A stretch of DNA of 38,572 nt from a virus, in UHGV virus genome UHGV-0071757; one strand, 5' to 3'. The notes under the pieces were generated by a model. That model made no database searches, was not told the DNA's origin, and worked only from the letters and a program-made list of their open reading frames with translations. A program made the position numbers and the translations under genes. Shown here piece by piece: positions 23,795 through 38,519 of the stretch. The stretch's first letter is position 1, and every line of letters begins with the position of its first letter.

Positions 23795-23871
23795 TTAAAT
23801 GGCTACGGGGCTATTGCCCCCAGCTATCCACCAGCAAATAAAAGTAACTTAATTCGATAGCAGGAGTTTTT

Positions 23872-24672
23872 ATGAAATTTCCAAAAACGCCCGTACAGGG
23901 GCGGGGCTTCGTTCGGCCTGAAAACCAGAATCTGCAAAATTTCGGCGAAATTATCCCGATTATTTCCGGCGTTATTGGCGGGAGTGAAACCACTATTGTT
24001 AGCGCCAGAGCGTTACATAAGGCGTTAGGTGTAGGGCGCGTTTTCCGTTCGTGGATCAAGGGGCGCATTGAAGAATACGGGTTCACGGAAGGCGTGGATT
24101 ATGAGGTTGTTGAATATTTGAGCCGACCCGATCCGGTGAGCGCAAAATCTCGCCAGCAAACCGCTCTTGAGTACATCATCACAGTGAACATGGCGAAAGA
24201 ACTGGCGATGGTCGAACGTACCGAACAGGGCCGCGCCGTTCGCCAGTACTTTATCAAATGCGAGGAGGAGCTACACAAGGTAGCGCCAGTGCGTTCCGCA
24301 GCGTTACGCCGGGAACTGAAAGCCCGTATCTCCGTTGCCAGCTACTTTAAGCCGATGTGTGCCGCGCTGGAGGCGTACCGGGCTGAACTGGGTAAAAACA
24401 CACTCCAGCACCACTACACCACGGAAGCCAATATGCTGGCGCGTATCGTGCTGGGTGGCATGACTGCAAAACAGTGGACGCAGGCGAACGGCATCACAGG
24501 CGAACCACGCGACCACATGAGCACGTTGCAGCTTGAGCACCTTTCTTACCTTGAGCAGAGCAATATCACGCTGATTGAGTTAGGCCTGGACTACCACCAG
24601 CGGAAAGCTGAATTAATTCGTCTTTCGCAGCGTTGGTTAGCCCGTCGCATGGAGGAAAACAGCCATGTGTAA
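23872..24672 (+). CDS. AntA-like antirepressor-domain protein
   Basis: 266 aa. Motif ARALHKALGVGRVFRSWIKGRIEEYGFTEGVDYEV resembles the AntA/AntB N-terminal domain as I recall it. Confidence 0.55.
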   Translation: MKFPKTPVQGRGFVRPENQNLQNFGEIIPIISGVIGGSETTIVSARALHKALGVGRVFRSWIKGRIEEYGFTEGVDYEVVEYLSRPDPVSAKSRQQTALEYIITVNMAKELAMVERTEQGRAVRQYFIKCEEELHKVAPVRSAALRRELKARISVASYFKPMCAALEAYRAELGKNTLQHHYTTEANMLARIVLGGMTAKQWTQANGITGEPRDHMSTLQLEHLSYLEQSNITLIELGLDYHQRKAELIRLSQRWLARRMEENSHV

Positions 24673-25344
24673 CGCTCTGACCGTTACAAAAAGAGAAAGC
24701 GCCCCGTTGCCGGAGCGCCTTTGTGAACGAATAGCCTACTGCGCCATATTGCTTACTGTCTACGAGGCAGATTATAGCGTTGTGGTCGCACAGAGTGAAG
24801 GCGCTGATCACCGTTACTACAGCACGCCAGAAATGCAGAATATTTTGCTGCAAAATGTCGTTGGTCACGCTGTCCGGAAAGCAAAAAATTTTGCTGGTGG
24901 CGCGACTGATGCGATTTTGTCAGGTCGCAAGGTGATGATCAATCTGATGTCTAATTTCGTTCTGGATAAAACAAAGGCGACCGCAGAGGGCCACCAGTGG
25001 GAAAGCTACACACTTGAACACATCGCCAACAATGCCAGATTTGCGGCTGGTGGGCAATGTGATCAGTGTGTTGGCTTGCTGGTGGGCTATTCCTGCTCTT
25101 TAACATTGCCATGCCGCGATGTTTTCCAGGTATGCGACCCCATTTTTGTGCGCCTGTACTCTTTAAGGAATTTCTCAAGGATAAACGCACAGGGCGCGAA
25201 TCTGTCTGACTCATATTCGTACGTTATCTTTCTGCGCTGTCTTTTCCGTGCCGGTGATGGTGTATTGGTCGATTCTTTGTTGGTCATTCTGTGTACCTGT
25301 AAAGCAATGCGCCGGAGTTCCTCACACCACGGCGATGATAGTTA

Positions 25345-25650
25345 TTATTCTGATTCTTTGGCCTTGCGGCGCTGGAGTTCTTCACGTGCGACGGTGACGA
25401 GCTGCCCGATCTCCTCGACAGCTTTGACTCCGATTTTTTCCACCTGCGCCAGTGCATTGAGCGAAGAAACCAGGGGATTTTCTCCGCTTCCTTCTGCCTG
25501 GCGGCGGGCGATCTCACCACGCATGGCGGTTACTATGAATCCGGCGTTGCTTTCGCCGTCCAGTTTTACGGATTCCATGCCTTCAAAAGCATCATGTGGG
25601 ATACGAATTGAAATCTGTTTTGATTTGTCGTTGATAGTGTTTTTTGCCAT
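25345..25650 (-). CDS. putative ribbon-helix-helix transcriptional repressor
   Basis: Start taken at the ATG with SD TAGGAGA 7 nt upstream (MAKNTINDKSKQISIRIPHDAFEGMESVKL...). Beta-strand/helix pattern typical of RHH, helical C-terminus. Divergent from the downstream operon. Confidence 0.6.
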   Translation of the reverse strand: MAKNTINDKSKQISIRIPHDAFEGMESVKLDGESNAGFIVTAMRGEIARRQAEGSGENPLVSSLNALAQVEKIGVKAVEEIGQLVTVAREELQRRKAKESE

Positions 25651-25672
25651 GTGCATTCTCCTAAACAAAAGA

Positions 25673-25748
25673 TGTGATTCAGTATACACAAAAAAGAATC
25701 ACAAAAAATACTTGACCTGTGATTCAGTTAAATTTAATTTAAATCACA
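25673..25748. promoter_or_regulatory. two palindromic operators (TGTGATTCAG-N-GAATCACA) in a divergent promoter region
   Basis: O1 25673-25702 and O2 25719-25748, with a TTGACC -35-like hexamer between them. Located between the RHH gene and the 25838 operon. Confidence 0.55.
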
Positions 25749-25837
25749 CCTCAGTAAGAGGATATAAACGACAACGCCCCGAACTGTTTGCGGCAGTAGC
25801 GGGGCGTCTAACCAAACCGTTAAATGAGGTAACGATT

Positions 25838-26203
25838 ATGGCTGGGGCACAGCATACCCAAACTCACCCTAAATTTATATACACCTTCTTGGCGGTGCAC
25901 CGTGATTGCATGGCTGACGGTAAAAACACTGTTCATGTAGCCGCCGATACGCTGGTTGATGCCTGCGAGATGCTCAATGACATGGGCTATATCTCGGCAA
26001 CATGGAAAGGGCGCGAAGAAAACACGTTGTTTATTCAGAAATGCGAAAACAATTTTATCTGGCGTTTTATCGCCCTGAGTACGGCACAACCGCGCGTGAT
26101 TCACATCGAGGCCACCAGCGAACAGGAAGCACGCCAGCAATCTCCTGATGGCTGCGTGATGGTATTCGCTGCCCGTATTCGCCAGGAGGTGGAGCATGTG
26201 TAA
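25838..26203 (+). CDS. hypothetical protein (first gene of replication/regulatory operon)
   Basis: ATG 25838 with GAGG SD 8 nt upstream, 121 aa. It is the in-frame 3' part of the 512-aa ORF in the track. Confidence 0.55.
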   Translation: MAGAQHTQTHPKFIYTFLAVHRDCMADGKNTVHVAADTLVDACEMLNDMGYISATWKGREENTLFIQKCENNFIWRFIALSTAQPRVIHIEATSEQEARQQSPDGCVMVFAARIRQEVEHV

Positions 26204-26420
26204 TGCAACATGGCCTGATGCAGCGGTAGACGCTATCAAAACGCTGATGGATTCACTTATTGAGATTTCTGCTATCGCTGGTGTGGCGCATAAACACGCA
26301 GCCAGAGAATCAGAATGCATCTCCCATTATTTAGCATTTGTGCAGCTGAAAGCCGATCAGGCACTGGATAAGGCCGGAAAAATTATCATGGCTGATGTAC
26401 AGGAGGTGCACCATGCATAA
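26196..26420 (+). CDS. hypothetical small protein
   Basis: 74 aa. Start overlaps the upstream stop (ATGTGTAA). Confidence 0.45.
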   Translation: MCNATWPDAAVDAIKTLMDSLIEISAIAGVAHKHAARESECISHYLAFVQLKADQALDKAGKIIMADVQEVHHA

Positions 26421-26778
26421 CCTGTCAATTTCTGACCTTAACAGCATTCAGTTTGACGAGATATTTTCCGGGCAGCTACTGGTCAACGTGGAGAATGGAC
26501 GCGTGGTAAGTAATTATCACCTGCCGGATGGTGCAATTGCCGGAAGCGTTGAAGCATTGCTGGAACTGGCGGAACGTGCGCGACTGATTAAGCCGTCAAC
26601 GTGCCATCACGATGATGATCTGCATTTTACCGGGTGTATGGTGAGTCACTACGAAAACGGCGTTGAAGTATCCTGCGAACGTCTGCGTGATGATTGCTGT
26701 TTCGGCACACTGCCGGAATTTATCGAATTGCTGACCAGTTGCGGTTATCAGGTCATTCAGGGGGGTAAACATGCGTGA
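26413..26778 (+). CDS. hypothetical protein
   Basis: ATG 26413 with AGGAGG 7 nt upstream. Overlaps the previous stop (ATGCATAA). Confidence 0.55.
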   Translation: MHNLSISDLNSIQFDEIFSGQLLVNVENGRVVSNYHLPDGAIAGSVEALLELAERARLIKPSTCHHDDDLHFTGCMVSHYENGVEVSCERLRDDCCFGTLPEFIELLTSCGYQVIQGGKHA

Positions 26779-27004
26779 TGATCGTTTTAATTCCCTGAAA
26801 CAGGAGTTTGATGGCGCACCGGAAGATACATCGGGCGCATTGTTGAGCATTGCTGACATGATGAAAGCTGCATATTTTCTTATCAATACCATTGGCTACA
26901 AGTCAGAGGGTGAAATGATTCTTAGTATTGCGTCGGACTATGCTGAATATGTGGCAGAGACGCGTTACAGAAGAAAATCTCTGGAGGATGTAAGCCATGC
27001 ATAA
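26771..27004 (+). CDS. hypothetical small protein
   Basis: 77 aa. Start overlaps the upstream stop, suggesting translational coupling. Confidence 0.5.
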   Translation: MRDDRFNSLKQEFDGAPEDTSGALLSIADMMKAAYFLINTIGYKSEGEMILSIASDYAEYVAETRYRRKSLEDVSHA

Positions 27005-27197
27005 TCATGAAGCGCATGTACCCGTAGTGCTTAATGTGCCAGATGATTTCACCGGACGCGTGCTGGTTTACCTTGATAAAGAAAAAGTGAAATCACAATG
27101 CCGACTGAAAAGTAATGAGATTGTGGGTTCTCCTGAATTTTTTTCTGAACTCTGTATTCGTGCAGAAATAAAACCGGAACTGCTGACAGGAAAATAA
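26997..27197 (+). CDS. hypothetical small protein
   Basis: 66 aa. Start overlaps the upstream stop (ATGCATAA). Confidence 0.45.
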   Translation: MHNHEAHVPVVLNVPDDFTGRVLVYLDKEKVKSQCRLKSNEIVGSPEFFSELCIRAEIKPELLTGK

Positions 27198-27201
27198 AAC
27201 C

Positions 27202-27492
27202 ATGAAAAGGAAAAATTCTGGCTTTACTGCCAGCGGTCTCTCTCGGCCTGAAATCAGACACGGAGATATTTACCGCGACACCAGACGTGGGGGACGAGTG
27301 GTTATTCGTCACGTTACGCCAGGCAATATCACCTACCGCCGTGAGGCTTACGAATATGACTGCGTAATGCCGCGCCGTCAGTTTGAGCGTGATTTTATTC
27401 TGGTGGAAAACAAACAACAGGCAGTGGCGAGACGTGCAGCCACGAATATTAAAAAAATCCGGGCAATGTTGGTTGCGGGAGGTAAGAAGTGA
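27202..27492 (+). CDS. small basic protein, possibly DUF4222-like
   Basis: 96 aa. RGGRVVIRHVTPGNITYRREAYEYDCVMPRRQFERDFILV resembles small proteins found upstream of primases in P4-like islands (recall, low confidence). Confidence 0.5.
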   Translation: MKRKNSGFTASGLSRPEIRHGDIYRDTRRGGRVVIRHVTPGNITYRREAYEYDCVMPRRQFERDFILVENKQQAVARRAATNIKKIRAMLVAGGKK

Positions 27493-29294
27493 AAAACGCA
27501 CCGAATTTAAAATATCAGCCGAAGGATAAATTCACCGAGGTAATCATTTTTGCCGGGACGGATGCTTACGCCCATGCTCAACACTGGATTGAAAGCGAAG
27601 GACGAAAACACGGCGATAACGTGCCTCCTGTTTACCTGGGGCCAAAGCAACTGGCAGACCTGGCGAATATCCGCATTGTCGACGATGAACGCCGCTTTGC
27701 GCGTGTCTATCTCGCGGGGGAGATAGAGCCAATCCAGATCAATGCTATTGCTGAAAAGCTGGCGCTGGCTGGTGTACAGGACGCGAAATTATACAAAGGT
27801 ATCACCGACCGGGAGCCGGAAAACTGGCGCGACTACCTGCAACGGATCCGCGAACAGGCAGAGAGTGGGGAAGTTTCAGCGATGAAATTAGCCACAAAAA
27901 ATATTGACCTATCCAGGCCAGCACTAAATCAGATGGGAGCCAGCCAGAGAGGGGAAGTGTTACTTGAATATTATGGAAGAGCACTGGCTATAAATGATGA
28001 TTCTGATGTAGTTCACCATTACAACGGAATTGTCTGGGTGCCTGTATCTGATAAGGAACTCCAGCGGTCTATGGCGAAGATTTTTATTGATGCTGGAATC
28101 AGTTATTCGCAAAACGCCATTAAATTTGCCGTAGACACAATGAAATTGAGCCTGCCTGTTATGGGCGGGGCAGACAGGAATCTTATTGGATTCAGTAACG
28201 GGGTATTTGATACCCGGACGGGAAATTTTCGGGAGCATAACAAAAATGACTGGTTGTTAAATGCCAGTGAATTACCGTTCAGCCCACCAGCAGAGGGGGA
28301 AACGCTGGCAACACATGCGCCGAATTTCTGGAAGTGGCTGCGTCGTTCGGTGGCAGATAATGATCGTAAAGCTGATCGCGTACTGGCGGCATTATTCATG
28401 GTGCTGGCGAACCGGTACGACTGGCAGTTATTCCTTGAGGTAACAGGCCCAGGCGGAAGCGGTAAAAGTGTGATGGCTGAGATTTGTACCATGCTGGCGG
28501 GTAAGGCCAACACAGTATCGGCAAGCATGAAGGCTCTGGAAGACGCAAGGGAACGCGCGTTAGTAGTTGGCTTTTCGCTGATTATCATGCCGGATATGAC
28601 TCGCTACGCTGGCGATGGTGCAGGAATTAAGGCAATTACTGGCGGCGACAAGGTGGCAATTGATCCGAAACATAAAGCCCCCTACTCCACACGTATTCCG
28701 GCAGTAGTGCTTGCGGTAAACAATAACGCCATGTCATTCAGTGACCGAAGCGGGGGGATCTCGCGTCGTAGGGTGATATTTAATTTCTCTGAGGTCGTAC
28801 CGGAGAACGAACGCGATCCCATGCTGGCGGAAAAGATAGAAGGCGAACTGGCGGTAGTGATTCGCCATTTGCTAACACGATTTACCGACCAGGACGAAGC
28901 TAAAAGACTACTTTATGAGCAGCAAAAATCAGAAGAAGCGCTGTTGATAAAGCGCGAAGGTGATTCACTGGTGGACTTTTGCGGCTATCTGATGTCGTTG
29001 GTTAAATGTGAAGGAATGATGGTGGGCAATGCGGAAATAGTGCCATTTAGCCCGAGGCGATACCTGTATCATGCTTATTTAGCCTATATGTCAGCGCATG
29101 GCCTGGGAAAACCAGTATCACTGACACGCTTTGGTACTGATATGCCAGGAGCTATGGCGGAATACGGAAAGGAGTATAAGCGGGCTAAATGCACTAAAGG
29201 CCCGGATAAAGGGCGAGTGATAACAAATGTTCTGTTAGATGATGATGCTGATGGCTGGTTGCCAGCAGCTACAGGGATTAACGACAGAACATAA
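27489..29294 (+). CDS. primase/helicase-like replication protein (D5-N/P4-alpha C-terminal type, P-loop NTPase)
   Basis: 601 aa. Walker A TGPGGSGKS preceded by a region resembling D5_N/primase C-terminal domains. Followed immediately by the iteron array. Confidence 0.75.
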   Translation: MKNAPNLKYQPKDKFTEVIIFAGTDAYAHAQHWIESEGRKHGDNVPPVYLGPKQLADLANIRIVDDERRFARVYLAGEIEPIQINAIAEKLALAGVQDAKLYKGITDREPENWRDYLQRIREQAESGEVSAMKLATKNIDLSRPALNQMGASQRGEVLLEYYGRALAINDDSDVVHHYNGIVWVPVSDKELQRSMAKIFIDAGISYSQNAIKFAVDTMKLSLPVMGGADRNLIGFSNGVFDTRTGNFREHNKNDWLLNASELPFSPPAEGETLATHAPNFWKWLRRSVADNDRKADRVLAALFMVLANRYDWQLFLEVTGPGGSGKSVMAEICTMLAGKANTVSASMKALEDARERALVVGFSLIIMPDMTRYAGDGAGIKAITGGDKVAIDPKHKAPYSTRIPAVVLAVNNNAMSFSDRSGGISRRRVIFNFSEVVPENERDPMLAEKIEGELAVVIRHLLTRFTDQDEAKRLLYEQQKSEEALLIKREGDSLVDFCGYLMSLVKCEGMMVGNAEIVPFSPRRYLYHAYLAYMSAHGLGKPVSLTRFGTDMPGAMAEYGKEYKRAKCTKGPDKGRVITNVLLDDDADGWLPAATGINDRT

Positions 29295-29319
29295 TACGAA
29301 ATTTATAAGCTGAAACGTA

Positions 29320-29660
29320 AAGGTAGACGGTTGGTAGACAGATTCACTTAACCCTCTACCAACCATCTACCAATTAATATTTTGAATTATAAAGATATTT
29401 TCAATGTGGTAGAGAGGTAGACAGTTATTTCTATATTCCTAAACCACGGGGGGTATATAAAAAACAGATAGTTAAGGGGGCATTTTTTAAATTTCTCTTT
29501 TAACTGTCTACACTGTCTACCATTTAGTAAAAATCATTAATTATCAATGTATTAATGCGGTAGACCGTTGGTAGACAGTTTGCAGATTGTTTTTTTGTTA
29601 TGTGTTAATAACATTAAATAAATCAATCAATTATATCGGTAGACAGTTGGTAGACAGTTG
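29320..29660. repeat. putative island replication origin: ~12 GGTAGAC(N)G iterons in both orientations with AT-rich spacers
   Basis: Copies at about 29322, 29333, 29354(rc), 29364(rc), 29408, 29416, 29505(rc), 29514(rc), 29558, 29568, 29637 and 29648. AT-rich stretches lie between clusters. Confidence 0.6.
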
Positions 29661-29665
29661 TAACG

Positions 29666-30208
29666 ATGGGGCAAAGCATGACTAAGCTGACCATTAACAG
29701 AAAACCAAAAGGTATTTACGGCACGCCGCAGAAAACGACGCAGGCGGCACAGGAGCAGGATAAAACCACATCGGCGCATAAAGTGATGCCCGGTAACCAG
29801 AAAGCGCAGCAGAAGCCTACAGGGGCGACACCGTGGCGGCATATGACCAAACGCCAGCGCAAAAACCGCAGGCGCGTTAACCGCCTCACTGAGTTGTGGC
29901 CTGACTTATTCAGCCGGGAAGCACTGAAGCCGCTTAAGGTGGGGATATTCGACGACCTGATGCAGGATCTCGCCGTCAGGGGGCTGGCATTCGGGCCAGG
30001 GGCATTGCGTGCGACGCTGGCATCTTATGCGCAGTGTCCGCGCTATTACCGCGCCTTAATGGCTGGTGGGGTACGCTACGACCTGAAAGGCCAGCCGTGC
30101 GGCGAGGTGACACCACAGGAACAACAGGACGCAGAAACGCGGCTGGTGGCGCTGAATGAGAAGCGCAAACGCCAGCGCCGGGCAGCAAAGGAGACAATAG
30201 GCGCATGA
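29666..30208 (+). CDS. ProQ/FinO-family RNA-binding protein
   Basis: 180 aa. LTELWPDLFSREALKPLKVGIFDDLMQDL...RYDLKGQPCGEV matches the FinO/ProQ N-terminal domain pattern. Basic N- and C-terminal tails. Confidence 0.7.
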   Translation: MGQSMTKLTINRKPKGIYGTPQKTTQAAQEQDKTTSAHKVMPGNQKAQQKPTGATPWRHMTKRQRKNRRRVNRLTELWPDLFSREALKPLKVGIFDDLMQDLAVRGLAFGPGALRATLASYAQCPRYYRALMAGGVRYDLKGQPCGEVTPQEQQDAETRLVALNEKRKRQRRAAKETIGA

Positions 30209-30492
30209 TTCACGACAGCAAAGCGGAAGCACTGGAAGCGCGTGGTCTGTACCGGAGAGCGGCGGCGCGGTGGGCTGAGGTCATCATGCTGGCGAATGAT
30301 GACAAGGCACGGGAACAGGCGGCAAAACGTCGCGCGGAATGTATCCACAAGGCAGCACGCCCACCAGCAAGGCAGGATAATTTCGGGGAGATGCGCGAAA
30401 CCATCAGCCGGGCACATGCCGGGATGGGATTACATCAGCCCAATGGTGAGGCATTCAGGAAATACCAAAAAAAGAACAATTGTAGTCAGTAA
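30205..30492 (+). CDS. PerC-family transcriptional regulator
   Basis: 95 aa. SKAEALEARGLYRRAAARWAEVIMLANDDKAREQAAKRRAECI resembles PerC-type activators. Overlaps the upstream stop. Confidence 0.65.
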   Translation: MIHDSKAEALEARGLYRRAAARWAEVIMLANDDKAREQAAKRRAECIHKAARPPARQDNFGEMRETISRAHAGMGLHQPNGEAFRKYQKKNNCSQ

Positions 30493-30626
30493 CAGAGGAT
30501 GGGATTCTCTTGGTTTTTTGTTGATGCTTTCTGAGGAAATCTACTACGTTGCTGAGCAGATGAATATTCAATTGCATCTGGGTTCCTGATAAGATTAATC
30601 TGAATATTTTCATTTGGAATAGGGAT

Positions 30627-31769
30627 ATGAATAAAACTTTAATTGCAACATTAGTCGGTATAGTAATGTTAACCGGATGTGGGCCAGAAGAGTTAACTCC
30701 AGAACAGAAACAGGAAGTAGCTGCTCTTAAAGCTGAACTGTCGCAAACGGAAGGTGAAATATCAGCAGCTAAGGAAGTTGACCAGCAGTTTTCTGGTGGG
30801 TTGATAAAAAATCTGACAACAGCAAGACTGGAAATATTAGGAACTAATAAAGCGCTTTTGGAACAGCGTATTAATGCTATTGAATCAGGTGCCAAAATTG
30901 ATGTTGTTGTATCTGGAGTAAAACCTGATCCTGAGCTTGCGGCTTCAATTAAAACTGAAATTGACAGCTTAGATGCAAAAATCAACGAAGCCAAAGCTGA
31001 TGCTCGTCAGTATAGTGGTGGTCTGATAAAGGTACTAAAATTATCTACTGTTGCCACTGAAGAGCAGACCATGGCAATGTTGCAGCAAAAGTACCTCACA
31101 GCCAAGTATGGCCTCGCTGAAGTTAAGCTGGCATCAGTACAAGCTAATGACGCAAAAAACAGTACTGAAACGGAAGTAACAGCCAAAAATTCCCAAGAGC
31201 AACTTCCTTTACTCCCGCCAGCGGATGGTCCGTTTGGCTTAGAAGCCGGTCTTACACAGAAAAACATCGAAGATATGATCGGTGCTAAGCTCAAGCCACT
31301 ACCAGACAGTGTGAATCTGTATACTTCTGATAAATTACCGAAGCAAAACGCAGATTTTGAAATGTATGGTTTGCTGATCTCCCCGAAAGCTGGTTTATGT
31401 CAAATACGGGCTTTAGGAAAAAATATTGATACTGATAGCTATGGATTGGCTCTTAAATCCAAGTTTGAAGAATTGAGTAATTCTTTAAGTTCTCTGTATG
31501 GAAAGGCTGATACTACAGACTTTTTGCTGGCTGGTTCAATTTGGAAAGATCCTCAGGACTGGATGAGGGGGCTAAACAAAAAAGAACGCTTCTTATCTGC
31601 TACATGGAAGGGAACAAAAGAAATACCATTAAAAAACAATATTGATACTATATCTATTGAGGCCAGAGCGAACAATTCCACTCAGGGATATGTCTATCTG
31701 CAGTACTCATTTACAAATGACGAAATTTGTCAGGCAGAAATTGAAGGGGCGAAAAAAAGTTCCCTTTAA
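30627..31769 (+). CDS. lipoprotein with internal repeat, unknown function
   Basis: 380 aa. Signal peptide plus lipobox VMLTGCG. Duplicated (Q/R)Q(F/Y)SGGLIK segments. Strong terminator downstream. Confidence 0.7.
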   Translation: MNKTLIATLVGIVMLTGCGPEELTPEQKQEVAALKAELSQTEGEISAAKEVDQQFSGGLIKNLTTARLEILGTNKALLEQRINAIESGAKIDVVVSGVKPDPELAASIKTEIDSLDAKINEAKADARQYSGGLIKVLKLSTVATEEQTMAMLQQKYLTAKYGLAEVKLASVQANDAKNSTETEVTAKNSQEQLPLLPPADGPFGLEAGLTQKNIEDMIGAKLKPLPDSVNLYTSDKLPKQNADFEMYGLLISPKAGLCQIRALGKNIDTDSYGLALKSKFEELSNSLSSLYGKADTTDFLLAGSIWKDPQDWMRGLNKKERFLSATWKGTKEIPLKNNIDTISIEARANNSTQGYVYLQYSFTNDEICQAEIEGAKKSSL

Positions 31770-31780
31770 ACAATCCGTGC

Positions 31781-31806
31781 AAAGCCCCTTAGTAAGGGGC
31801 TTTTAT
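31781..31806 (+). terminator. rho-independent terminator
   Basis: agcccctt/aaggggct stem followed by TTTT. Confidence 0.7.
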
Positions 31807-31833
31807 ATATTAATGTTCAACGTGGGGGATTAG

Positions 31834-32157
31834 ATGAAAGATAATCTAGCAAAACTAATTGAAAATACTTTAAAAGATATTCTATTAGCTAATGCTGCTC
31901 TAACATTCATTTTTGCAATACCAATGGCTATTATCAGTAGGCATGGGATGGGCATCACAATCTGGTTTATAACTGTGCTCATTGCACCTGCTCTGTGTGC
32001 AGTAGGTGCATGGCTTGTATCTCGAACATCCGGCCATGCTGAGGAGTTCTTTCATCGTCGGTGGGCTAAGCGAATTTATGTTTTTTATACTCTTGCGGCT
32101 GCCGAGTTTTTGCTTGTGTACTCAATCGCGCAAATAATGAAAAATCTGATGAAATAA
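31834..32157 (+). CDS. small inner-membrane protein
   Basis: 107 aa with 2-3 predicted TM segments (LLANAALTFIFAIPMAII, ITIWFITVLIAPALCAVGAWLV). SD GGGGGA upstream. Confidence 0.55.
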   Translation: MKDNLAKLIENTLKDILLANAALTFIFAIPMAIISRHGMGITIWFITVLIAPALCAVGAWLVSRTSGHAEEFFHRRWAKRIYVFYTLAAAEFLLVYSIAQIMKNLMK

Positions 32158-32445
32158 TTAACAAGTTATTATCATGGAGCTTGTGGCTGTTAACCTGCAG
32201 TGAGGCGACAATCGTGTATTTATAAAAACTTCCCCTTTTCACTCCCCGCAGCTTCTTCTGCTATTGCCTTTATGTTTGCATGCACCAACATCTGCCATAC
32301 CTTTGCAGAAAAATCAGAGCATTCAGTGCCGAAGGTTGGTTTATTGATGCTTTTCGTTTCATTTATTGCAATTGTCTCTGGTATCATTTCAATTTGTGCA
32401 ATAATTGCAATAATTGCAATTATTGTCATTCAGAAGGGATCATCA

Positions 32446-32612
32446 TGAAAAATCACGGAGTAAAGCCAGTTTTACTTTCCCGGAGGCAGATCGAAGCCCT
32501 GCAACGCATCCAGGACGAAGAGCGTCAGAAATCTGTGCTTGGTGTGGCACCGTCGATTCATGTTATCGCTCGGCAACTGATGGATAAGGCACTTAAAGAG
32601 GTGAGACTGTGA
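32446..32612 (+). CDS. hypothetical small protein (possible DNA-binding/antitoxin-like)
   Basis: Taken from the internal ATG 32446 of the 32280-32612 ORF, with AAGGG upstream, giving 55 aa. Basic helical segment SRRQIEALQRIQDEERQ. Confidence 0.4.
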
Positions 32613-32881
32613 AATTAAATATCAGAGTGGATAAACGCCAGCTATGGCAGAAAAAAGAGAACAGCGAGGCATTCAGGGCGTTGCTGGTGGAAAATCTTCA
32701 GCATCGGTTCAGTGGAGAGTTGCCTGATGCTCTAGGGAAGAAACTGGAATCCCTGACGGTGGAAATTGGCGATTATGGCTTTGTTGATGTTGAAAGCACG
32801 ACTGCCAACACAGAAATCGTAAAACAGGTCGTCAATGATGTAATGAAAACCACGCTTAGCCAGCCATCCTGGCGCAACTGA
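32609..32881 (+). CDS. hypothetical protein
   Basis: 90 aa, GTG start overlapping the upstream stop (GTGA). Followed by a hairpin. Confidence 0.5.
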   Translation: MKLNIRVDKRQLWQKKENSEAFRALLVENLQHRFSGELPDALGKKLESLTVEIGDYGFVDVESTTANTEIVKQVVNDVMKTTLSQPSWRN

Positions 32882-32886
32882 ATCAG

Positions 32887-32912
32887 TAAGGGGCGGTTAT
32901 TGCCCCTTTCCT
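32887..32912 (+). terminator. putative terminator hairpin
   Basis: aaggggc/gcccctt stem. The U-tract is weak (tttcc). Confidence 0.45.
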
Positions 32913-32962
32913 CCATACCCACAACGCATTCCCTTTCCGCATGAAATTATTTTTTATCGTAT

Positions 32963-33508
32963 ATGCATGAGGTGAGCTACATGTTGATGAGTAAAGCCGA
33001 ATACGCCAAATACAAAGGCGTAAGCCGCCAGACAGTTTACGACTGGCTCGAGAAAGGCGAAGTGGTCATGTCCGGTAAAAAAATTGATGTGGAAGCGACA
33101 GAGCAGCGGAACAGCCCACCAGCACAGGGGAAAGACACCATTTCTGAAATGTGGCCAGAAAGAACGCTGGAAATGACATGGGGCGAGTTCTGGAAAGCAG
33201 TTAAGGCCAGAGACGGTAAAATTCCTGCGCCAGTAACGGACGAGGGCATACAGCAGCGTGTGCTGTATGCAGCCGGGGAATTAGGCTGGGAAGTGCACTT
33301 TCTTGATGATGGTGCTATCTGCCTTGAGGATGATGAAGGGCAGCATTACTTTGAAAAATACAATTTGCGAGGTAATGCCAGGCTGGCAATTCGTATGCTG
33401 CGTTGCGAACTCTGCTATGTTGCAGGTGATTATCCCGATGAACCGGAATCATGGAGTGAAGCCGGGTTAAACGCCCTGGCTGAGTGGGAAAAATCAGACC
33501 ATCAATGA
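32963..33508 (+). CDS. helix-turn-helix DNA-binding protein
   Basis: 181 aa (a likelier start is ATG 32981 after GAGG). N-terminal HTH SKAEYAKYKGVSRQTVYDWLEKGEV. Ends 3 nt before the repeat region. Confidence 0.65.
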   Translation: MHEVSYMLMSKAEYAKYKGVSRQTVYDWLEKGEVVMSGKKIDVEATEQRNSPPAQGKDTISEMWPERTLEMTWGEFWKAVKARDGKIPAPVTDEGIQQRVLYAAGELGWEVHFLDDGAICLEDDEGQHYFEKYNLRGNARLAIRMLRCELCYVAGDYPDEPESWSEAGLNALAEWEKSDHQ

Positions 33509-33510
33509 CA

Positions 33511-33810
33511 TCAAAAAGTGTCAAGTTGAGCAGCTTGCCAGCTTGCCAGCTTGCCAGCTTGCCAGCTTGCCAGCTTGCCAGCTTGCCAGGTTGACACTTT
33601 ACACTCTGAACGCGAAAAAGTGTCAACCTCGCTGTAAGCCCCGCAATTACTGGGTTTGTGCCAGATTTACCACGTCAAAAAGCCGAAAAAACCGCGAAAA
33701 ATGTCAAGTTGCCATGCTTAGAAATGCTAAGGTTTTTCGCGAAAAAGTGTCAAGTGTGTCAACCTGCGATATTAAGATTTATTAAGGTCTTAAGCCGGAA
33801 AGTGTCAACC
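33511..33810. promoter_or_regulatory. array of dispersed (A)AAGTGTCAA(G/C) motifs (about 7 copies, one inverted)
   Basis: Motif copies near 33517, 33590(rc), 33619, 33700 (variant ATGTCAAG), 33746, 33755 and 33801, several with a CGCGAAAAA prefix. Confidence 0.6.
33531..33586. repeat. (CAGCTTGC)x7 octanucleotide tandem repeat
   Basis: Counted directly: 7 perfect 8-nt units (56 nt), flanked by inverted half-sites AGTGTCAA (33516-33523) and TTGACACT (33591-33598). Confidence 0.95.
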
Positions 33811-33929
33811 AGCCCCCTAAGATTTCCTAAGGTGTGATTGGACGTGCTGTACCCTTCTTGTCGCAATGTGGATGAATGACTATAGTGCTGGTAGCTTTGA
33901 CAGCAGAATCAGATTACTGAAGGAAATGT

Positions 33930-34514
33930 GTGATGAGTTTTTTTAGTCTTTATGGGAAAGAACTATTTTCTTTTTTTATAACGATTTTAACATGGATACT
34001 GAATAACAGATTTAAAAGCAAGGCAAAGTTATCCTATGGTTATCAGCATGGATTTACTTTTCTTCTCAATGAACCCTTACGGAATGCCAATGGTGAGGTA
34101 ATATCTAATTCACAGTTGGTGTATACACGATCTATTATTCTTGTTAATGAAGGGCGAGAAAGTGCTACTAATATCTCATTGGTTTTTAACTATAAGCCAA
34201 TGCATATTAATTTTTGGCCTGTCCACCATTTTGAAGAAAATATTGAACAGGATGGTCGCTATATTATCAAGTTTGAAAGCCTTGCACCTGGTGAGTCTAT
34301 TCAATGTGAAATATTATCAATAAATAGAGAAGTTCCAAGTATTCTATCGATAAGATCTAAAGAGTGTGTGGCTGAGCCAGTGAATATCGTGATGCAAAAA
34401 TCGATTAGTAATATTGCCTTACGTTGCTATCAATTATTAATACTTCTTGGAACTGGCACATTAACATATTTAATTATCGTTATTCTGCAATGGTTAGTCA
34501 CTAAAACGGGATAA
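33930..34514 (+). CDS. AT-rich membrane-anchored protein, unknown function
   Basis: 194 aa. N-terminal TM (LFSFFITILTWIL) and C-terminal TM (LLILLGTGTLTYLIIVILQWLV). Markedly AT-rich codon usage by eye. Confidence 0.6.
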   Translation: MMSFFSLYGKELFSFFITILTWILNNRFKSKAKLSYGYQHGFTFLLNEPLRNANGEVISNSQLVYTRSIILVNEGRESATNISLVFNYKPMHINFWPVHHFEENIEQDGRYIIKFESLAPGESIQCEILSINREVPSILSIRSKECVAEPVNIVMQKSISNIALRCYQLLILLGTGTLTYLIIVILQWLVTKTG

Positions 34515-34536
34515 TCCATTGTATTGAACTTATTAA

Positions 34537-34746
34537 TTGGATATGAGTGCTGATAGGAAACCTATGACCATCACCGAAGCCGATATGCTGGAGATGATCC
34601 GCAGCATTGCCGGAATCAAACAACCAGCAAGCAAAATTAACAGGTGTTCAGCGCCTGTTTCCGTTGTGCTGCAACAGGAACGCCACCAGCGGCGGGAAAA
34701 CGAAAAGGCGTACCAATGGACGAAGCCAAACAAGTTACGGCGTTAA
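34537..34746 (+). CDS. hypothetical small protein (uncertain)
   Basis: 69-aa ORF followed by a good terminator. No motif. Confidence 0.35.
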   Translation: MDMSADRKPMTITEADMLEMIRSIAGIKQPASKINRCSAPVSVVLQQERHQRRENEKAYQWTKPNKLRR

Positions 34747-34752
34747 TTAGGG

Positions 34753-34778
34753 ATGCGGGCTGGGATAGCCCGCATTTT
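34753..34778 (+). terminator. rho-independent terminator (possibly bidirectional)
   Basis: atgcgggct/agcccgcat stem followed by TTTTG. Lies between convergent ORFs. Confidence 0.6.
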
Positions 34779-34780
34779 GC

Positions 34781-35038
34781 TCACAGCTTGTTATAAATTT
34801 TTCCAGCGAAGTCATGAACCGCCTGAGGAATATCCGACGGCGTACCTAGCATTGTTGGCGCATCGGAAACAAAGAACATGATCGCTTCTTTGATTTCTTT
34901 GAAAGATGGGGTAGGGGTAATGCGCTTGAGATTTGAAACAGCCCGTCGGAACTCCGCCGTATCCATTGGATGCCTGCTAAACCACGTTGGACTAGAAGCC
35001 CAACATTTTACTGCTTCTTTCACCTTAGTGTTCATCAT
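34781..35038 (-). CDS. hypothetical small protein
   Basis: 85 aa, tandem ATG start with SD AAGGAAAA upstream on the minus strand. Confidence 0.5.
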   Translation of the reverse strand: MMNTKVKEAVKCWASSPTWFSRHPMDTAEFRRAVSNLKRITPTPSFKEIKEAIMFFVSDAPTMLGTPSDIPQAVHDFAGKIYNKL

Positions 35039-35640
35039 TTTTCCTTTTGCTTATTACCATACAAAGCATGTGGAAAGAGAAGATTAACATGGAAAATATG
35101 GGGTTGGTGAGCAAATGGTACTGGTAGCCCGTCGACATCTATCAGCATGATGATGTGAGGCCGTATCAGTGGCGGAAACCGAACAGGCTGCGACGGTGAG
35201 CGGGGCGTTATAGTAAGCCAACAGCCAAGCCAAACATTAAGCCTAAGGGTAGGGCTTTTTTGTGGCTGGTGGCGTAATGCCAACATTTTTACATGATGTT
35301 TTGAGGTATTATCTGCATGTTCGTGGTGAGGAACCACCAGAACTGATGAGCTTTTGTTTATGCATGTACTGCATGAAAACTGTCCTATAAAGTGGGGGGT
35401 AGGTGTGCTGAGGAGAACATTGTGAGCTACGCCAAATTAAATTGTGTCGGGGGTGAACAAGTTTCTTGATAGGTGTCAGTAGGCACCTATAGTTATAGGC
35501 TTCTTCAATTTTGTGTGCACAATATTTTGTATTGATTGGGGATAGGGTTGCACGCAAAATTAAAAAATGTATATTTATTAACGTGTATTTGATAATTTTT
35601 AAATAAAATATTTCTCTATGTTTATCATAAAAGGTTTTTT

Positions 35641-37239
35641 ATGAGCGTGGCAATAAAAACAATGACACCAGTGTCATATTCTATAAAAGTTGATGCGATT
35701 AAGAAAAGATTGTCATATTTTAGTGATGTTTCTTTTTTGAGAAATTTTTATGAACACTTCCAAAAAGTAAGGGATGTCGAGGTGGGTATTGTTTCCAATT
35801 TCCCTTGGTGTTGCTATCTGGCAATGAAATGGAAGTTTTGCATGAAGGAAAAAAAGCCTGCAAAAGAAATGAGTAAAAATGATTTTGTTGATATTATCAA
35901 CTTAATCTATAACTTGCAACTAGAAGCATCTAATTTAATCGTTGATGATAAAGTTATGCTAAGCCTTAGACGAATGGTGATAAATCAGTTGCTTTATCAA
36001 TCAACTGATAAATTTAATGCCAATTCATTAACAAGACAGTATATTTGGTATTGCTTGAATGATGAATCATATTATAAAGATAAGTTTTTAGAATGTACTG
36101 GTTTACATTTGGAAAACTATTACAAAATGGCATGTTATTTTACCGCTATTTCATGTATTAATCCTGATATAGAATCAGAGGTTATTCCATTTAAACACTT
36201 GATAATAAACTTGGTTCCGATATTTGGTCCGGAACAAGTGAAAAGATTTTTGGAATTAACATGCTTAAAAATTGATGGTGTGAGAGATTTTATTGCCCCA
36301 TATAAATTGGATAAAAACATTACCGCTGAGTATTATGAAGATACACCATTCCTCAGTAAACCAATGTTTTTAGATGGCGATGGTGTAGTGATATTATGCA
36401 AAAGAATCATGAAGTCAGGGTTTGTCAACCTAGTTCCAGAATTGTTCAAGCAGGTCTATAAGGAATCTTATAAAGAAAAATTTGGTAAGACGATGGAACT
36501 TTATATTTCTCGCTTTCTTGATAAGTACAATTATAACTTTAAGACTGAAAGGGAGGTTAAGAGGATTTATAGTGATAATGCAATAAAAAATTGCAAGTCC
36601 GTAGATTTTGTTATTTCAGAGGGAGATTCAATAGTTTATATTGACTCGAAGGCAATAGAGCCTGCAAAGTTCGTTAAAACATCTAATAATGCTCAGTTGC
36701 TAAAGGAAAGGTTGAATAAGAGTTTTATTAAAGGGATTTATCAAGGTCAGGAATGTGCTTTTAACTTAAATAAAATAGAGATGAGAAAACCATCTTCGAA
36801 AGATTCAATGTTAATTGTGGTGCATCGGGATCATCATATATCAAATGCAATGGTTGTGCAGGATTTTATTAACCCTGATTTATCAACTGAGTTATCTGAA
36901 AAATATCATAGTATCCCCATTGATCTAAAAAGAATTTACTATATAACAATTGATGAGTTCGAATTATTACTTATGATGTGTAAACAGAAAGAACTATCTA
37001 TTAATGAGTTTATTGATATGTGTGTGGAAAAAGATTCATTCCCTCATACTCAGAAGTCTAATCTAAGCATGCACATATATGAATTTGCACCAGAGGGTAT
37101 TGATGATGATCAATTGATTGTAAAAGGAAGAGACTTACTGATTGATGATGTTATTGAAAATATGAAAGAGAGTGCATCAAAATGGTCTGGGAAAGTTGAT
37201 ATGTATCTTAAAATAAAAGATTATATTTTTAATTGGTAA
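35641..37239 (+). CDS. orphan 532-aa protein, possible PD-(D/E)xK-like nuclease motif; candidate defence/accessory protein
   Basis: Long ORF with strongly AT-rich codon usage, its own AT-rich upstream region and a strong terminator. Segment SVDFVISEGDSIVYIDSKA fits a beta-hairpin D ... (D/E)xK pattern. No other recognisable motif. Confidence 0.7.
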   Translation: MSVAIKTMTPVSYSIKVDAIKKRLSYFSDVSFLRNFYEHFQKVRDVEVGIVSNFPWCCYLAMKWKFCMKEKKPAKEMSKNDFVDIINLIYNLQLEASNLIVDDKVMLSLRRMVINQLLYQSTDKFNANSLTRQYIWYCLNDESYYKDKFLECTGLHLENYYKMACYFTAISCINPDIESEVIPFKHLIINLVPIFGPEQVKRFLELTCLKIDGVRDFIAPYKLDKNITAEYYEDTPFLSKPMFLDGDGVVILCKRIMKSGFVNLVPELFKQVYKESYKEKFGKTMELYISRFLDKYNYNFKTEREVKRIYSDNAIKNCKSVDFVISEGDSIVYIDSKAIEPAKFVKTSNNAQLLKERLNKSFIKGIYQGQECAFNLNKIEMRKPSSKDSMLIVVHRDHHISNAMVVQDFINPDLSTELSEKYHSIPIDLKRIYYITIDEFELLLMMCKQKELSINEFIDMCVEKDSFPHTQKSNLSMHIYEFAPEGIDDDQLIVKGRDLLIDDVIENMKESASKWSGKVDMYLKIKDYIFNW

Positions 37240-37243
37240 TTAA

Positions 37244-37275
37244 GCAAGGGTGTTATTATCAACACCCTTGCTCAT
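37244..37275 (+). terminator. rho-independent terminator
   Basis: 11-bp stem gcaagggtgtt/aacacccttgc with a 6-nt loop. Confidence 0.65.
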
Positions 37276-38012
37276 AGTCTTACAATATTAAATGTTGTGT
37301 TTTTTATTTATATATTTTATTGCCCATCAAGCTATTAATTCATCTCGTTGTTTGAGATAGGTTGAGCATTTGTATTTTTTTATCAATTTTATCTGTATGA
37401 GCTTAAGCAGCTTCAATAATATCTGCGTTAAATTACGCTTCATTCAGAGACGTGCTTGCTATTGACATGTAATCCATGTGCAACAAGATTCCTGCCATAA
37501 CTTATGCGTTTCAGATCCGAATCATGGACTGCTTTAAGTCATTTTTGTAGGGAAAACATGTTCACATGTCAGCACTGATTTGTTTCATCATATCCACTAT
37601 CTCGAATTTCTGTGTCGATAGATGAATGCAGACGGAAATATGTGAATTTTGTGCACGCTCTGCTATTAAGCGAAAACGAGCGTGGATATATCAACTAATA
37701 ATTGCCCTCATTAACATAGGTGGTGGCGGGTATAATCTCTGTAACCCAGTTGTTCGTGACTACCCACCTCGTCAAATTTTCACACCCGCGAAATGAAAAA
37801 TACTTCACGCTAGTGGTTATCCTTGGGCATCCACCAGCCCTTCATCATTGCCTGCCGGTGAGGCTGAGGCTCGAAGAAAAAGAGTGCTAGATAGTCGATT
37901 TTTGCCTGGTTTGGGATAAGGGAAAATTTATTGGGGGTACTTTTGGGGGTATCTATAAAAATGAAATATGAAAATATCATTAAATATCAATGTATTTTTT
38001 GTTTATGTTTTG

Positions 38013-38029
38013 TTCCTATTATCGCACCA
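38013..38029 (+). other. second att core: 16 nt matching the tRNA-Thr 3' end (tcctattatcg-cacca)
   Basis: Matches 21047-21062 with a 1-nt deletion, then continues into the duplicated int promoter region. Confidence 0.75.
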
Positions 38030-38519
38030 TTCTAACGTCTCCCCAAGTCTACTCAAGTATTTAAAAACCTCTTATAATCAGTATATTAATGCCCCTTTTA
38101 GTCTTTTGACGTCTATTTAAGTACCCCAAACTCTACAAGCAATTGAGGGGATTTGCTGTTCAGTTTAGTGGAGATACCCCCAAGTGAAACTCAATGCCCG
38201 TCAAATAGACACTGCCAAGCCAAAAGAGAAGGCTTACAAGCTGGCTGATGGTGGTGGTCTGTATCTCCTGGTAAAACCTAGTGGAGGAAAATATTGGCGC
38301 TTCAAGTATCGTGTAGCTGGTAAAGAGAAGCTGTTAGCACTAGGTGTGTATCCTGAAGTTACCTTGGCTGATGCTCGTGCAAAACGTGAAGAAGCTAAAA
38401 GGGGTATCGCTGGGGGTATCGATCCGATGGAAGCGAAACGAGAGGAAAAGATTGCCCGGGAAACGCAGTTAAACAACACCTTCAAAGATATTGCCCTTGA
38501 GTGGCACAGTAACAAATTA
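38013..38519 (+). repeat. direct repeat copy B (att core + int promoter + int 5' end)
   Basis: Aligns by eye with 21047-21567, with a ~12-nt deletion in the GGGGTAC motif region and scattered mismatches. Confidence 0.85.

Follow-up and report, generated by a model that had tools for sequence, protein, structure and literature searches.

The accessory gene at the distal end of the island described here, found in a 38,572-nt stretch of viral DNA (UHGV virus genome UHGV-0071757; hereafter the window), is by its sequence a known gene of the published GapS1/GAPS1 family of anti-phage nucleases and not a new system, and the findings as a whole are very probably best explained by GapS1 being carried as an accessory gene in the final cargo slot of a phage-satellite-like island at tRNA-Thr. 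The gapS1 product matched the NCBIfam model NF047931 ("antiphage GapS1") with 440.7 bits (E = 6e-132), 120 bits above the cutoff of 320, and the match extended over residues 20–478 of the protein and positions 1–455 of the 455-position profile. A 100%-identical gene is named gapS1 in RefSeq (WP_001526660.1). BLASTP comparison with Vibrio parahaemolyticus GapS1 proteins gave 26% identity over 435 aa with P0207 (E = 5e-55) and 22% identity over about 530 aa, that is full length, with P0220 (E = 9e-44), in agreement with the 24–29% published for the E. coli homologs. These comparison proteins are named GapS1, were picked by D and K at positions 313 and 328, and stand in for the founder protein WP_005477165.1. 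The family comprises 1,229 clusters at 50% identity; a word-indexed search, when repeated with alignment, returned the same 46 proteins, and an exhaustive profile search reached the wider family.

An initial annotation of this DNA had presented the gene as an orphan and as a candidate for a previously undescribed single-gene defence system. Its proposal of a single-gene anti-phage protein was borne out, both by GapS1 family membership and by the protection reported for a near-identical allele, EGQ2075554.1. Its claim of novelty is refuted by the NCBIfam assignment, the RefSeq name, the published family (with genetics and a trigger; Mahata et al.) and the fact that this near-identical allele has already been tested, and we give next to no credence to the gene being undescribed, even though Pfam yielded no family above threshold (TPD and DUF4143 sub-threshold only), PADLOC v2.0.0 returned 0 matches, the matching PHROG 14259 is listed with unknown function and many database copies of the protein are still labelled "hypothetical protein". 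The PADLOC result is due to the date of that database, and the PADLOC check recommended initially would wrongly have suggested novelty; a gene missed by PADLOC v2.0.0 or Pfam is not thereby shown to be an orphan. DefenseFinder would have decided the question, since it already reports GAPS1 (PMC13153251). The BFVD viral structure library contained no match to the product at E ≤ 0.001. The discovery value of the gene is therefore small, the family being published and annotated by the NCBI pipeline and DefenseFinder, and a near-identical allele being known to protect.

The window gene is, by the sequence compared, an allele of EGQ2075554.1: its first 380 nt (126 codons) are identical to the published clone at 379 of 380 positions, the single mismatch corresponding to V83I. 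For the other 406 codons we infer a similar near-identity, because the 90% cluster to which the alleles belong is tight (alleles 1–8 residues apart); at least 99% identity is expected overall, the clone probably being the V83I/N159S/R308K allele known as P0003. EGQ2075554.1 is one of three cloned E. coli GAPS1 homologs and protected against diverse coliphages, its plating profile having been recorded on 74 of them (Mahata et al., bioRxiv 10.1101/2023.03.28.534373). In the same preprint, the founder of the family is GAPS1 (GapS1) of the V. parahaemolyticus island VPaI-6 (WP_005477165.1), defence by which was abolished by the substitutions D313A and K328A; its trigger is the T7 capsid protein gp10, expression of the capsid protein alone leading to arrest and single amino-acid changes in it sufficing for escape; and its activation results in a bacteriostatic growth arrest with viability kept, not in death (bioRxiv 10.1101/2023.03.28.534373). 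Moreover, the preprint describes a native E. coli homolog in strain ZH142-A as active from its own chromosomal locus, with growth arrest at high MOI, and places GAPS1 homologs in 3.5% of RefSeq genomes, widely outside Gamma-Mobile-Trio (GMT) islands (bioRxiv 10.1101/2023.03.28.534373). Location in a GMT island is the source of the name GAPS1 and is not a requirement of the family.

The motif that had drawn attention initially, SVDFVISEGDSIVYIDSKA, is present at residues 320–338 of the product (not 318–336, as first given), and its reading as a D...(D/E)xK nuclease core was confirmed by the invariance of D322 and K337 and by the AlphaFold fold. The AF2 model (pLDDT 88.6, pTM 0.88) displayed an alpha-beta-beta-beta-alpha-beta topology around the motif and contained the elements that define the PD-(D/E)xK superfamily, namely a core in which an acidic residue of the first helix is combined with an Asp where the second strand begins and with (D/E)xK in the third strand. 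Among 178 full-length family members over which conservation was counted, D322 and K337 were invariant (178/178 each), position 335 was always D (132/178) or E (46/178), and position 286 was E in 171 (96%) and Q in 6. The V. parahaemolyticus members have D at 313 and K at 328 in the columns of D322 and K337, and these are the positions mutated in the paper. Judged from conservation and from the model, E286, D322 and D335-x-K337 are a genuine PD-(D/E)xK active site, and the catalytic tetrad is intact. The closest folds to the nuclease domain were FokI/BspD6I-type cleavage domains and the Upx and Can2 defence nucleases; HindIII and Bse634I were further strong structural neighbours, and viral cap-snatching endonucleases were among the weak Foldseek matches. 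When the family profile was compared with PDB sequences, nothing relevant (9wuf included) was found at E ≤ 10, only chance EF-hand matches.

The large N-terminal region suspected to precede the nuclease motif was also found, as an all-helical part of the model (Table 1); in keeping with what Mahata et al. discuss, it may be regarded as a putative phage-protein sensor or regulatory domain. Q116 and P241 are 100% invariant in the family, and P55, W56, R110, Q120, R132 and F149 are conserved in at least 90% of its members. The C-terminal 82 residues are less conserved, and the NCBIfam profile stops at residue 478. Neither an RNA-binding nor a DNA-recognition domain was detected in the product by Pfam or NCBIfam.

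Table 1. Coordinates of gapS1, its domains and flanking signals, and the carrier island in the window.
Feature	Position	Strand	Description or basis
gapS1 CDS	35641..37239	+	ATG start; 532 aa plus stop; GapS1/GAPS1-family single-protein anti-phage system
N-terminal all-helical region, aa 1–274	35641..36462	+	AF2 helices 10–273, pLDDT mostly >85
PD-(D/E)xK nuclease domain, about aa 275–450	36463..36990	+	
E286 codon	36496..36498	+	acidic residue on first core helix (model helix 275–295)
D322 codon	36604..36606	+	catalytic Asp; D313 of Vibrio GAPS1 (same alignment column)
D335-S336-K337 codons	36643..36651	+	active-site (D/E)xK; K337 = K328 of Vibrio GAPS1
C-terminal helical region, aa 451–532	36991..37236	+	AF2 helices 454–530, pLDDT 74–92
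Intergenic region 5' of gapS1	35039..35640	.	602 bp; divergent neighbour gene on opposite strand
Best sigma-70-like promoter match (candidate only)	35466..35493	+	TTGATA-16-TATAGT, 10/12 positions
Perfect hairpin	37243..37272	+	12-bp stem, 6-nt loop; begins 4 nt past gapS1 stop
Second, AT-rich hairpin with trailing GUGUUUUUUAUUU (probable terminator)	37281..37312	+	8-bp stem, hairpin 37281–37299; centroid structure
Satellite-like integrative island, gapS1 last gene	21065..38014	+	17 kb; gene content and E123 comparison
attL, partial 3' half of tRNA-Thr (47 nt) ending CCTATTATCGGCACCATT	21018..21064	+	exact pattern match, 0 expected by chance
attR, CCTATTATCGCACCATT	38015..38031	+	one G shorter than attL; sequence; same junction in APEC E123
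Tyrosine integrase gene	21229–22443		
int-alpA RNA	22488–22555		Rfam, 45.5 bits against 35.8
D5-type primase-helicase gene	27489–29294		601 aa
Iterons next to primase gene	29322–29660		
P22-type coat protein gene of adjacent CUS-3-like prophage	6935–8206		

The start and stop of gapS1 are the same in the RefSeq annotation of identical genomes and in the published expression clone. The initial annotation had placed the start correctly and the end at 37275, which takes in the downstream hairpin. The GC content of the CDS is 0.308 (GC3 0.291), matching the earlier estimate of about 30%, whereas the remainder of the island has 0.461 and the window as a whole 0.454. Upstream of the gene the intergenic GC content falls towards the start codon: it is 0.40 for the whole region, 0.338 over the final 300 bp, in line with the AT-rich region of about 300 bp described before, and 0.208 over the final 100 bp; in identical RefSeq islands no features are annotated between the neighbour gene and gapS1. 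The sequence AAAGG lies 6 nt 5' of the ATG. Sigma-70-like sites upstream of gapS1 were not enriched (17 versus 14.0 ± 3.4 expected from shuffles), and the best promoter match is therefore no evidence of function. Downstream, the fold of positions 37230–37320 (91 nt) reached -23.7 kcal/mol (z = -4.48 against shuffles). The hairpin that had been put forward as an 11-bp-stem terminator exists, but its stem is longer by one base pair, a U-tract directly 3' of it is absent, and a consensus terminator scan called neither of the two hairpins 3' of the gene; on the basis of the folding model, it is probably the second hairpin, together with its trailing tract, that forms the intrinsic terminator proper. 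The view of gapS1 as a self-contained unit held: it stands alone without a partner gene, its neighbour is distant and divergent, the hairpin/terminator follows it and nothing is annotated between it and attR. It is also, as claimed, the largest accessory (cargo) gene, the largest gene of the island being that of the D5-type primase.

By its gene content, the carrier element is a phage-satellite-like island. It was classed as such because it encodes an integrase, an int-alpA RNA, an Ant-type antirepressor (AntA), an Icd-like protein, a D5-type primase and a terS-like HTH protein (a weak match, PHROG 57, E = 2e-6), and it displays the features of a satellite carrier, that is an integrase with att repeats, the int-alpA RNA, a primase with iterons and a length within the usual range of about 10–18 kb. 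A ProQ/FinO gene and several ORFs of 100–380 aa without family are also present. The island is ~99% identical to the thrW island of APEC E123, the alignment running to position 38035, and attL matches the 3' end of that strain's intact tRNA-Thr letter for letter. In the annotation of identical islands there is no GMT trio, which places this gapS1 outside a GMT island. The setting is that of an ExPEC/APEC-type E. coli, with a P22-like prophage specific for K1 and the vat toxin island as neighbours of the satellite-like element. A 512-aa ORF at 24665–26203 was rejected as a large gene; only its last 50–70 residues matched (Icd-like repressor), and RefSeq annotates a short gene only. A second, tandem island from position 38184 was likewise discarded, since the ORF ends after 112 aa and is annotated as a truncated integrase remnant before the vat island (K56-43-un, IMT5155).

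In line with its initial placement as cargo at the distal end of a satellite island, gapS1 is the last gene before attR. The slot is variable, and sister islands exchange the whole gene for other cargo: an Old-family nuclease occupies it in EC11 (PADLOC E = 2e-62), and DUF4747 together with a partner gene in APEC IMT5155. The gene is rare: 6 carriers were counted among 5,426 complete genomes of E. coli. Its alleles over at least 263 contigs differ by few, conservative substitutions only. Such rarity, together with a foreign base composition, is characteristic of defence genes carried by mobile elements. For phage satellites, both P4-like ones and PICIs, Rousset and colleagues and Fillol-Salom and colleagues reportedly described defence hotspots in 2022. 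The window island resembles them in having an accessory slot by the att site, a conserved backbone and alternative defence cargo, and differs from P4 in having no psu/delta/sid set.

Compared with known systems, GapS1 of the window is most like Vibrio GAPS1: both are single proteins of ~530 aa, homologous over their full length, with a helical N-terminal region followed by PD-(D/E)xK and with the same spacing of 15 residues between the invariant Asp and Lys (KSVDFVISEGDSIVYIDSKAIEP in the window protein, KVADFLIREGDRCILVDAKAIEP in V. parahaemolyticus). They differ in sequence (about 22–26% identity) and in carrier, an integrase/primase island at tRNA-Thr versus a GMT island. Upx (PDB 9wuf) is likewise a single-protein anti-phage nuclease, with dual PD-(D/E)xK domains, and senses the phage terminase (PMC13099982, PMC13601566). 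However, Upx is a 1,212-aa protein in which a regulatory middle domain accompanies two nuclease domains (NTD, CTD), whereas the window protein has 532 aa and one nuclease domain; the reported interactors of Upx are terminase and gp16, not capsid; and the resemblance is structural only (query-normalised TM-score 0.31), sequence similarity being undetectable, so that the window protein falls outside the Upx family. The cleavage domains of N.BspD6I (2ewf), the R.BspD6I small subunit (2p14) and FokI (2fok) are 10–14% identical to GapS1. Unlike these type IIS enzymes, GapS1 has no homologous DNA-recognition domain and no nearby methyltransferase, and the trigger in its family is a phage protein. 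In fact, no methyltransferase is annotated anywhere in identical islands, which sets gapS1 apart from type II/IIS restriction-modification.

These findings suggest a model in which the 532-aa protein would be produced constitutively, in small amounts, from the AT-rich promoter region of its gene, and in which the helical N-terminal part would hold the nuclease domain in the C-terminal half inactive. Upon infection GapS1 would recognise a structural protein made late by the phage (in the published case, the major capsid protein), and the nuclease would be released to cleave nucleic acid, so that growth stops; the outcome would be dormancy, not lysis, and the phage would fail to complete its cycle. 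Triggering by capsid is extended to the window allele by analogy with the Vibrio founder, and the sensor specificity may differ between the two; trigger and outcome come from a Vibrio protein that is ~26% identical. From the closest folds, the presumed substrate is DNA. GapS1 could instead be a PD-(D/E)xK phosphodiesterase directed at RNA or tRNA whose action stops translation in a reversible way, a possibility we take seriously but consider somewhat doubtful. Can2, which acts on DNA and RNA, is among the structural neighbours, as are the cap-snatching endonucleases among the weak matches, and the bacteriostasis of the founder without loss of viability is easier to square with RNA damage than with cleavage of the chromosome; for this phenotype, RNA is no worse a candidate target than DNA. 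Mahata et al. themselves deliberately speak of a "phosphodiesterase" and name no target for it (bioRxiv 10.1101/2023.03.28.534373). Against this, the strongest neighbours (N.BspD6I, FokI, Upx, HindIII and Bse634I) are dsDNA or ssDNA nucleases, and the domain searches provided no sign of RNA binding.

Action on DNA sequence or modification, as by a solitary type IIS/FokI-like restriction endonuclease or an island-stabilising addiction module, is very improbable. The likeness to restriction enzymes is limited to a generic catalytic core at the low identity given above, and neither a recognisable DNA-recognition domain nor, in any annotated island, an adjoining methyltransferase or antitoxin gene was found. 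Escape from the founder through single capsid changes and arrest by capsid alone are not the behaviour of a restriction system, and EGQ2075554.1 has already been cloned without a methylase and without toxicity (bioRxiv 10.1101/2023.03.28.534373). We also think it unlikely that gapS1, although intact, is silent in its native strain, through xenogeneic silencing or as decaying passenger DNA, and has no share in the resistance of that strain. The GC content of 0.31, and of 0.21 in the leader, is as low as is typical of H-NS-bound DNA, promoter-like sites are no commoner than in shuffled sequence, and other island genes are frameshifted in some strains (e.g. the primase gene in K56-43-un). The ORF, however, is of full length, it has kept the catalytic tetrad and every residue that is invariant in the family, the few substitutions among its alleles are conservative, and a different native homolog, that of ZH142-A, is active at its chromosomal locus.

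Under the preferred reading of GapS1 as satellite-borne defence cargo, the adjacent CUS-3-like prophage is a plausible helper for the satellite. One could then imagine that a satellite-borne GapS1 would spare the P22-type coat of this prophage and fire on the capsids of competing phages, an idea to which we assign little probability; if true, the satellite would protect its own helper-host partnership by means of a capsid sensor. The family residue map (E/D/(D/E)xK, Q116 and P241) could guide mutagenesis directed at the substrate that is cut and at capsid-driven release. That a satellite-like island at thrW of ExPEC/APEC-type E. coli carries gapS1 in a variable slot for defence cargo is useful context for the family, distant copies of which were found by tblastn in Klebsiella prophages.

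The 532-aa protein encoded by gapS1 matched the NCBIfam profile NF047931 ("antiphage_GapS1") over the whole profile with 440.7 bits (E=6e-132; curated cutoff 320 bits), and the gene belongs to a family that is already known, has a name and has been characterised by experiment. Judged by Pfam (no match above threshold), PADLOC v2.0.0 (no match) and PHROGs (a family without assigned function) alone, the protein would look like an orphan, but NCBIfam says otherwise; DefenseFinder in current use reports GAPS1, whereas PADLOC v2.0.0 does not (PMC13153251). Identical gapS1 DNA was present in 6 of 5,426 complete E. coli genomes, and RefSeq labels it "gapS1: GapS1 family protein" (WP_001526660.1) in four of the six; the exact protein was found on 263 contigs in public data (271 sequences in its 90% cluster). 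An exhaustive profile search returned 1,229 clusters at E<=1e-3 and 428 at E<=1e-30 (clusters at 50% identity), nearly all of them 500-540 aa long and matching end to end. By BLASTP, the window protein was 26% identical to V. parahaemolyticus GapS1 over 435 aa (E=5e-55) and 22% identical to a second V. parahaemolyticus GapS1 over its full length (E=9e-44), consistent with the 24-29% given by Mahata et al. A distant copy was matched in a Klebsiella prophage, and this copy has independently been described as GAPS1-like (PMC12774648).

The founder of the family, GAPS1, is a single protein from the V. parahaemolyticus island VPaI-6 with a PD-(D/E)xK domain toward its C-terminus, and its D313A and K328A variants lose protection against T7 (Mahata et al., 10.1101/2023.03.28.534373). 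In the same study, T7 escape mutants carried the substitutions E183A, I217T and V247A in the capsid protein gp10, T7 re-engineered with I217T or V247A also escaped, and gp10 alone arrested the growth of GAPS1-positive cells while viability was kept, so that the cells became dormant and did not commit suicide. Homologs occur in ~3.5% of RefSeq genomes (78% of homologs in K. pneumoniae); three cloned E. coli homologs (EGQ2075554.1, EJP5250929.1 and WP_152927281.1) protected E. coli against diverse coliphages, and deletion of a fourth, native to ZH142-A, showed protection from the chromosomal locus (Mahata et al., 10.1101/2023.03.28.534373). The synthesised EGQ2075554.1 insert is given in their Supplementary Table S3, and within the 380 nt of coding sequence compared (window 35641-36020) it differed at one position, G247A (V83I), a common allelic variant within the window protein's 90% cluster, indicating that, over this portion, gapS1 is an allele of the experimentally validated homolog. 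The initial annotation had put forward an orphan, previously undescribed system; this is refuted by NF047931, the RefSeq naming and the work of Mahata et al., since the family is published and an allele that is in effect the same has been tested. Its functional reasoning, an anti-phage defence nuclease, was sound.

The proposed nuclease core was likewise borne out. The motif SVDFVISEGDSIVYIDSKA occupies residues 320-338, a shift of two from the original numbering, and across 178 aligned full-length members D322 and K337 were invariant (178/178), position 335 was always acidic (D in 132, E in 46), E286 was E in 171 and the D-to-K spacing was 15 residues in 149. Two residues of the N-terminal region, Q116 and P241, were invariant too, and Q368 was 98% conserved. 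In eight representatives the Asp is precisely residue 313 and the Lys residue 328; two of the eight head clusters of V. parahaemolyticus proteins that bear the name GapS1, and the catalytic segments differ very little (KVADFLIREGDRCILVDAKAIEP in the window protein, KSVDFVISEGDSIVYIDSKAIEP in V. parahaemolyticus GapS1). A confident AlphaFold2 model (34 homologs, mean pLDDT 88.6, pTM 0.88) was all-helical at residues 10-273, followed by a predicted core whose order of helices and strands is that of the PD-(D/E)xK topology (see table), so that the invariant catalytic tetrad is intact on a nuclease fold. The GapS1 profile gave no match at all against PDB sequences.

Coliphage protection is established for the near-identical allele EGQ2075554.1 (Mahata et al., 10.1101/2023.03.28.534373), while dependence on the Asp and the Lys, triggering by the capsid protein and bacteriostatic arrest were seen only in the 26%-identical founder. 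By analogy, the window allele would be capsid-triggered, its helical N-terminal region, with Q116 and P241, may be a sensor or autoinhibitory module, and its substrate is presumably DNA. RNA is a live alternative target because GapS1 activation is non-lethal and Mahata et al. reported no target for GAPS1. A functional and structural analogue, and not a family relative, is Upx, a 1,212-aa single-protein defence nuclease with two PD-(D/E)xK domains against one in GapS1, whose autoinhibition is lifted by a phage protein and which recognises phage terminases (PMC13099982, PMC13601566). Substrate, trigger specificity of this allele and its relation to the capsid of the neighbouring prophage are matters for the family as a whole, and no oddity of the window sequence raises them.

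Features of the window and predicted core elements of the GapS1 protein (aa, AlphaFold2 model)
Feature	Position	Strand	Remark
P22 coat protein of prophage	6935-8206		
Endosialidase tailspike of prophage	16799-19744		P22 head-binding domain; End_beta_propel E=8e-233
attL-side partial tRNA-Thr	21018-21064		47 nt; separates prophage from 17-kb island
int-alpA RNA	22488-22555		just 3' of island integrase; Rfam RF02996, 45.5 bits (gathering score 35.8)
Iteron-like direct repeats	29322-29660		core GGTAGACAGTT, several copies; immediately downstream of D5-type primase-helicase gene
Upstream neighbour of gapS1	34781-35038	-	602 bp intergenic to gapS1
Candidate sigma-70-like promoter	35466-35493	+	best match, TTGATA-16-TATAGT
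gapS1	35641-37239	+	ATG start, 532 aa
Perfect hairpin	37243-37272	+	12-bp stem, 6-nt loop; begins 4 bases past gapS1 stop
AT-rich 8-bp hairpin and U-tract	37281-37312	+	downstream of 12-bp-stem hairpin
Island right border	38015-38031		CCTATTATCGCACCATT
P4-type integrase remnant	38184-38522		112 aa, Arm DNA-binding domain only; window's end, past attR
Core helix	aa 275-295		carries E286
Core strand	aa 300-302		
Core helix	aa 303-312		
Core strand	aa 323-327		directly past D322
Core strand	aa 330-337		carries D335, K337
Core helix	aa 362-379		
Core strand	aa 389-394		

The gene stands alone, and its ORF, AT-richness, AT-rich upstream region and downstream hairpin were confirmed with small corrections. 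GC was 0.308 in the coding sequence (GC3 0.291), 0.461 in the rest of the island and 0.454 in the window, and only 0.208 in the final 100 bp of the upstream intergenic DNA. Promoter-like sites in this AT-rich stretch were not enriched (17 versus 14.0 +/- 3.4 in shuffles), and a gapS1 promoter there is therefore plausible rather than demonstrated. As for the claimed terminator, the hairpin stood (folding z = -4.5 versus shuffles for the 91-nt region) with a stem of 12 bp, and a consensus terminator scan called neither hairpin.

The cargo location of gapS1 is mobile and compositionally foreign, as the last gene of an island coding for a tyrosine integrase, an AntA antirepressor, a D5-type primase-helicase, ProQ/FinO, an Icd-like gene, a weakly terS-like HTH protein, PerC (annotation of the identical RefSeq island) and several ORFs without known function. 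The island was ~99% identical to one standing alone at thrW in APEC E123. We call it satellite-like; no helper exploitation genes were identified in it. The int-alpA RNA motif is typical of P4/PICI-type integrative elements, and the iteron-like repeats are probably the replication origin. Between the replication module and gapS1, ORFs 30627-31769 (380 aa) and 33930-34514 (194 aa, hydrophobic at both termini) had no match in Pfam, PHROGs or PADLOC. An intergenic perfect tandem octamer, (CAGCTTGC)x7 at 33531-33586, has inverted flanks (GTGTCAA...TTGACAC), and precisely at this point the alignment to the APEC E123 island, elsewhere 99% identical, is interrupted, which indicates a copy number differing between strains; the octamers may act as a phase switch or bind proteins as an array, or may be a variable-number repeat. 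An open frame of 512 codons (24665-26203), unannotated in identical RefSeq islands, matched only in its last 50-70 residues (Icd-like/transcriptional repressor, PHROGs 6196 and 1743) and the remainder resembled low-complexity nonsense. Probably the frame, 5' of a short real icd-like gene, is accidental, though its length is unusual for chance.

The right-end sequence of the island occurred without gapS1 in 13 further E. coli genomes, and the proposal of a defence-cargo slot gained support from them. EC11 holds an Old-family ATP-dependent nuclease instead (PADLOC Old, E=2e-62), and APEC IMT5155 (locus L003, 5375-6867) a DUF4747 protein (297 aa) with a 199-aa partner, neither of which matched PADLOC v2.0.0. 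With GapS1 and the Old-family nuclease as the other occupants of the slot, the DUF4747 protein and its partner are candidates for a defence system.

In tandem with the island at the tRNA-Thr att site lies a P22-like prophage, whose late region (1 to ~21017) includes genes for terminase, P22 portal (E=6e-179), scaffold protein and P22 coat (E=6e-142). The endosialidase tailspike with its P22 head-binding domain marks it, by sequence, as a CUS-3-like phage specific for the K1 capsule. This phage may be the helper of the island, and its coat protein would be an obvious one to set against capsid-sensing GapS1. Over its length, the integrase remnant shared 99% identity with the beginning of the island integrase (21229-), and in K56-43-un and APEC IMT5155 the same remnant precedes the MarR/vat vacuolating-autotransporter island; the thrW locus is therefore an array in which prophage, satellite and decayed pathogenicity island stand in tandem. 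The prophage further carries a phase-variable gene (19898-20639). Behind its ATG at 19898 the heptad AAGACTC is repeated 13 times in tandem (19903-19993), and the body that comes next encodes a hexapeptide-repeat acetyltransferase (Pfam Hexapep, E=4e-11); the gene resembles that for NeuO, the K1-capsule O-acetyltransferase of prophage CUS-3 (Deszo et al. 2005). The 13 heptads put the ATG out of frame with the body, so the sequence of the window corresponds to the OFF phase.
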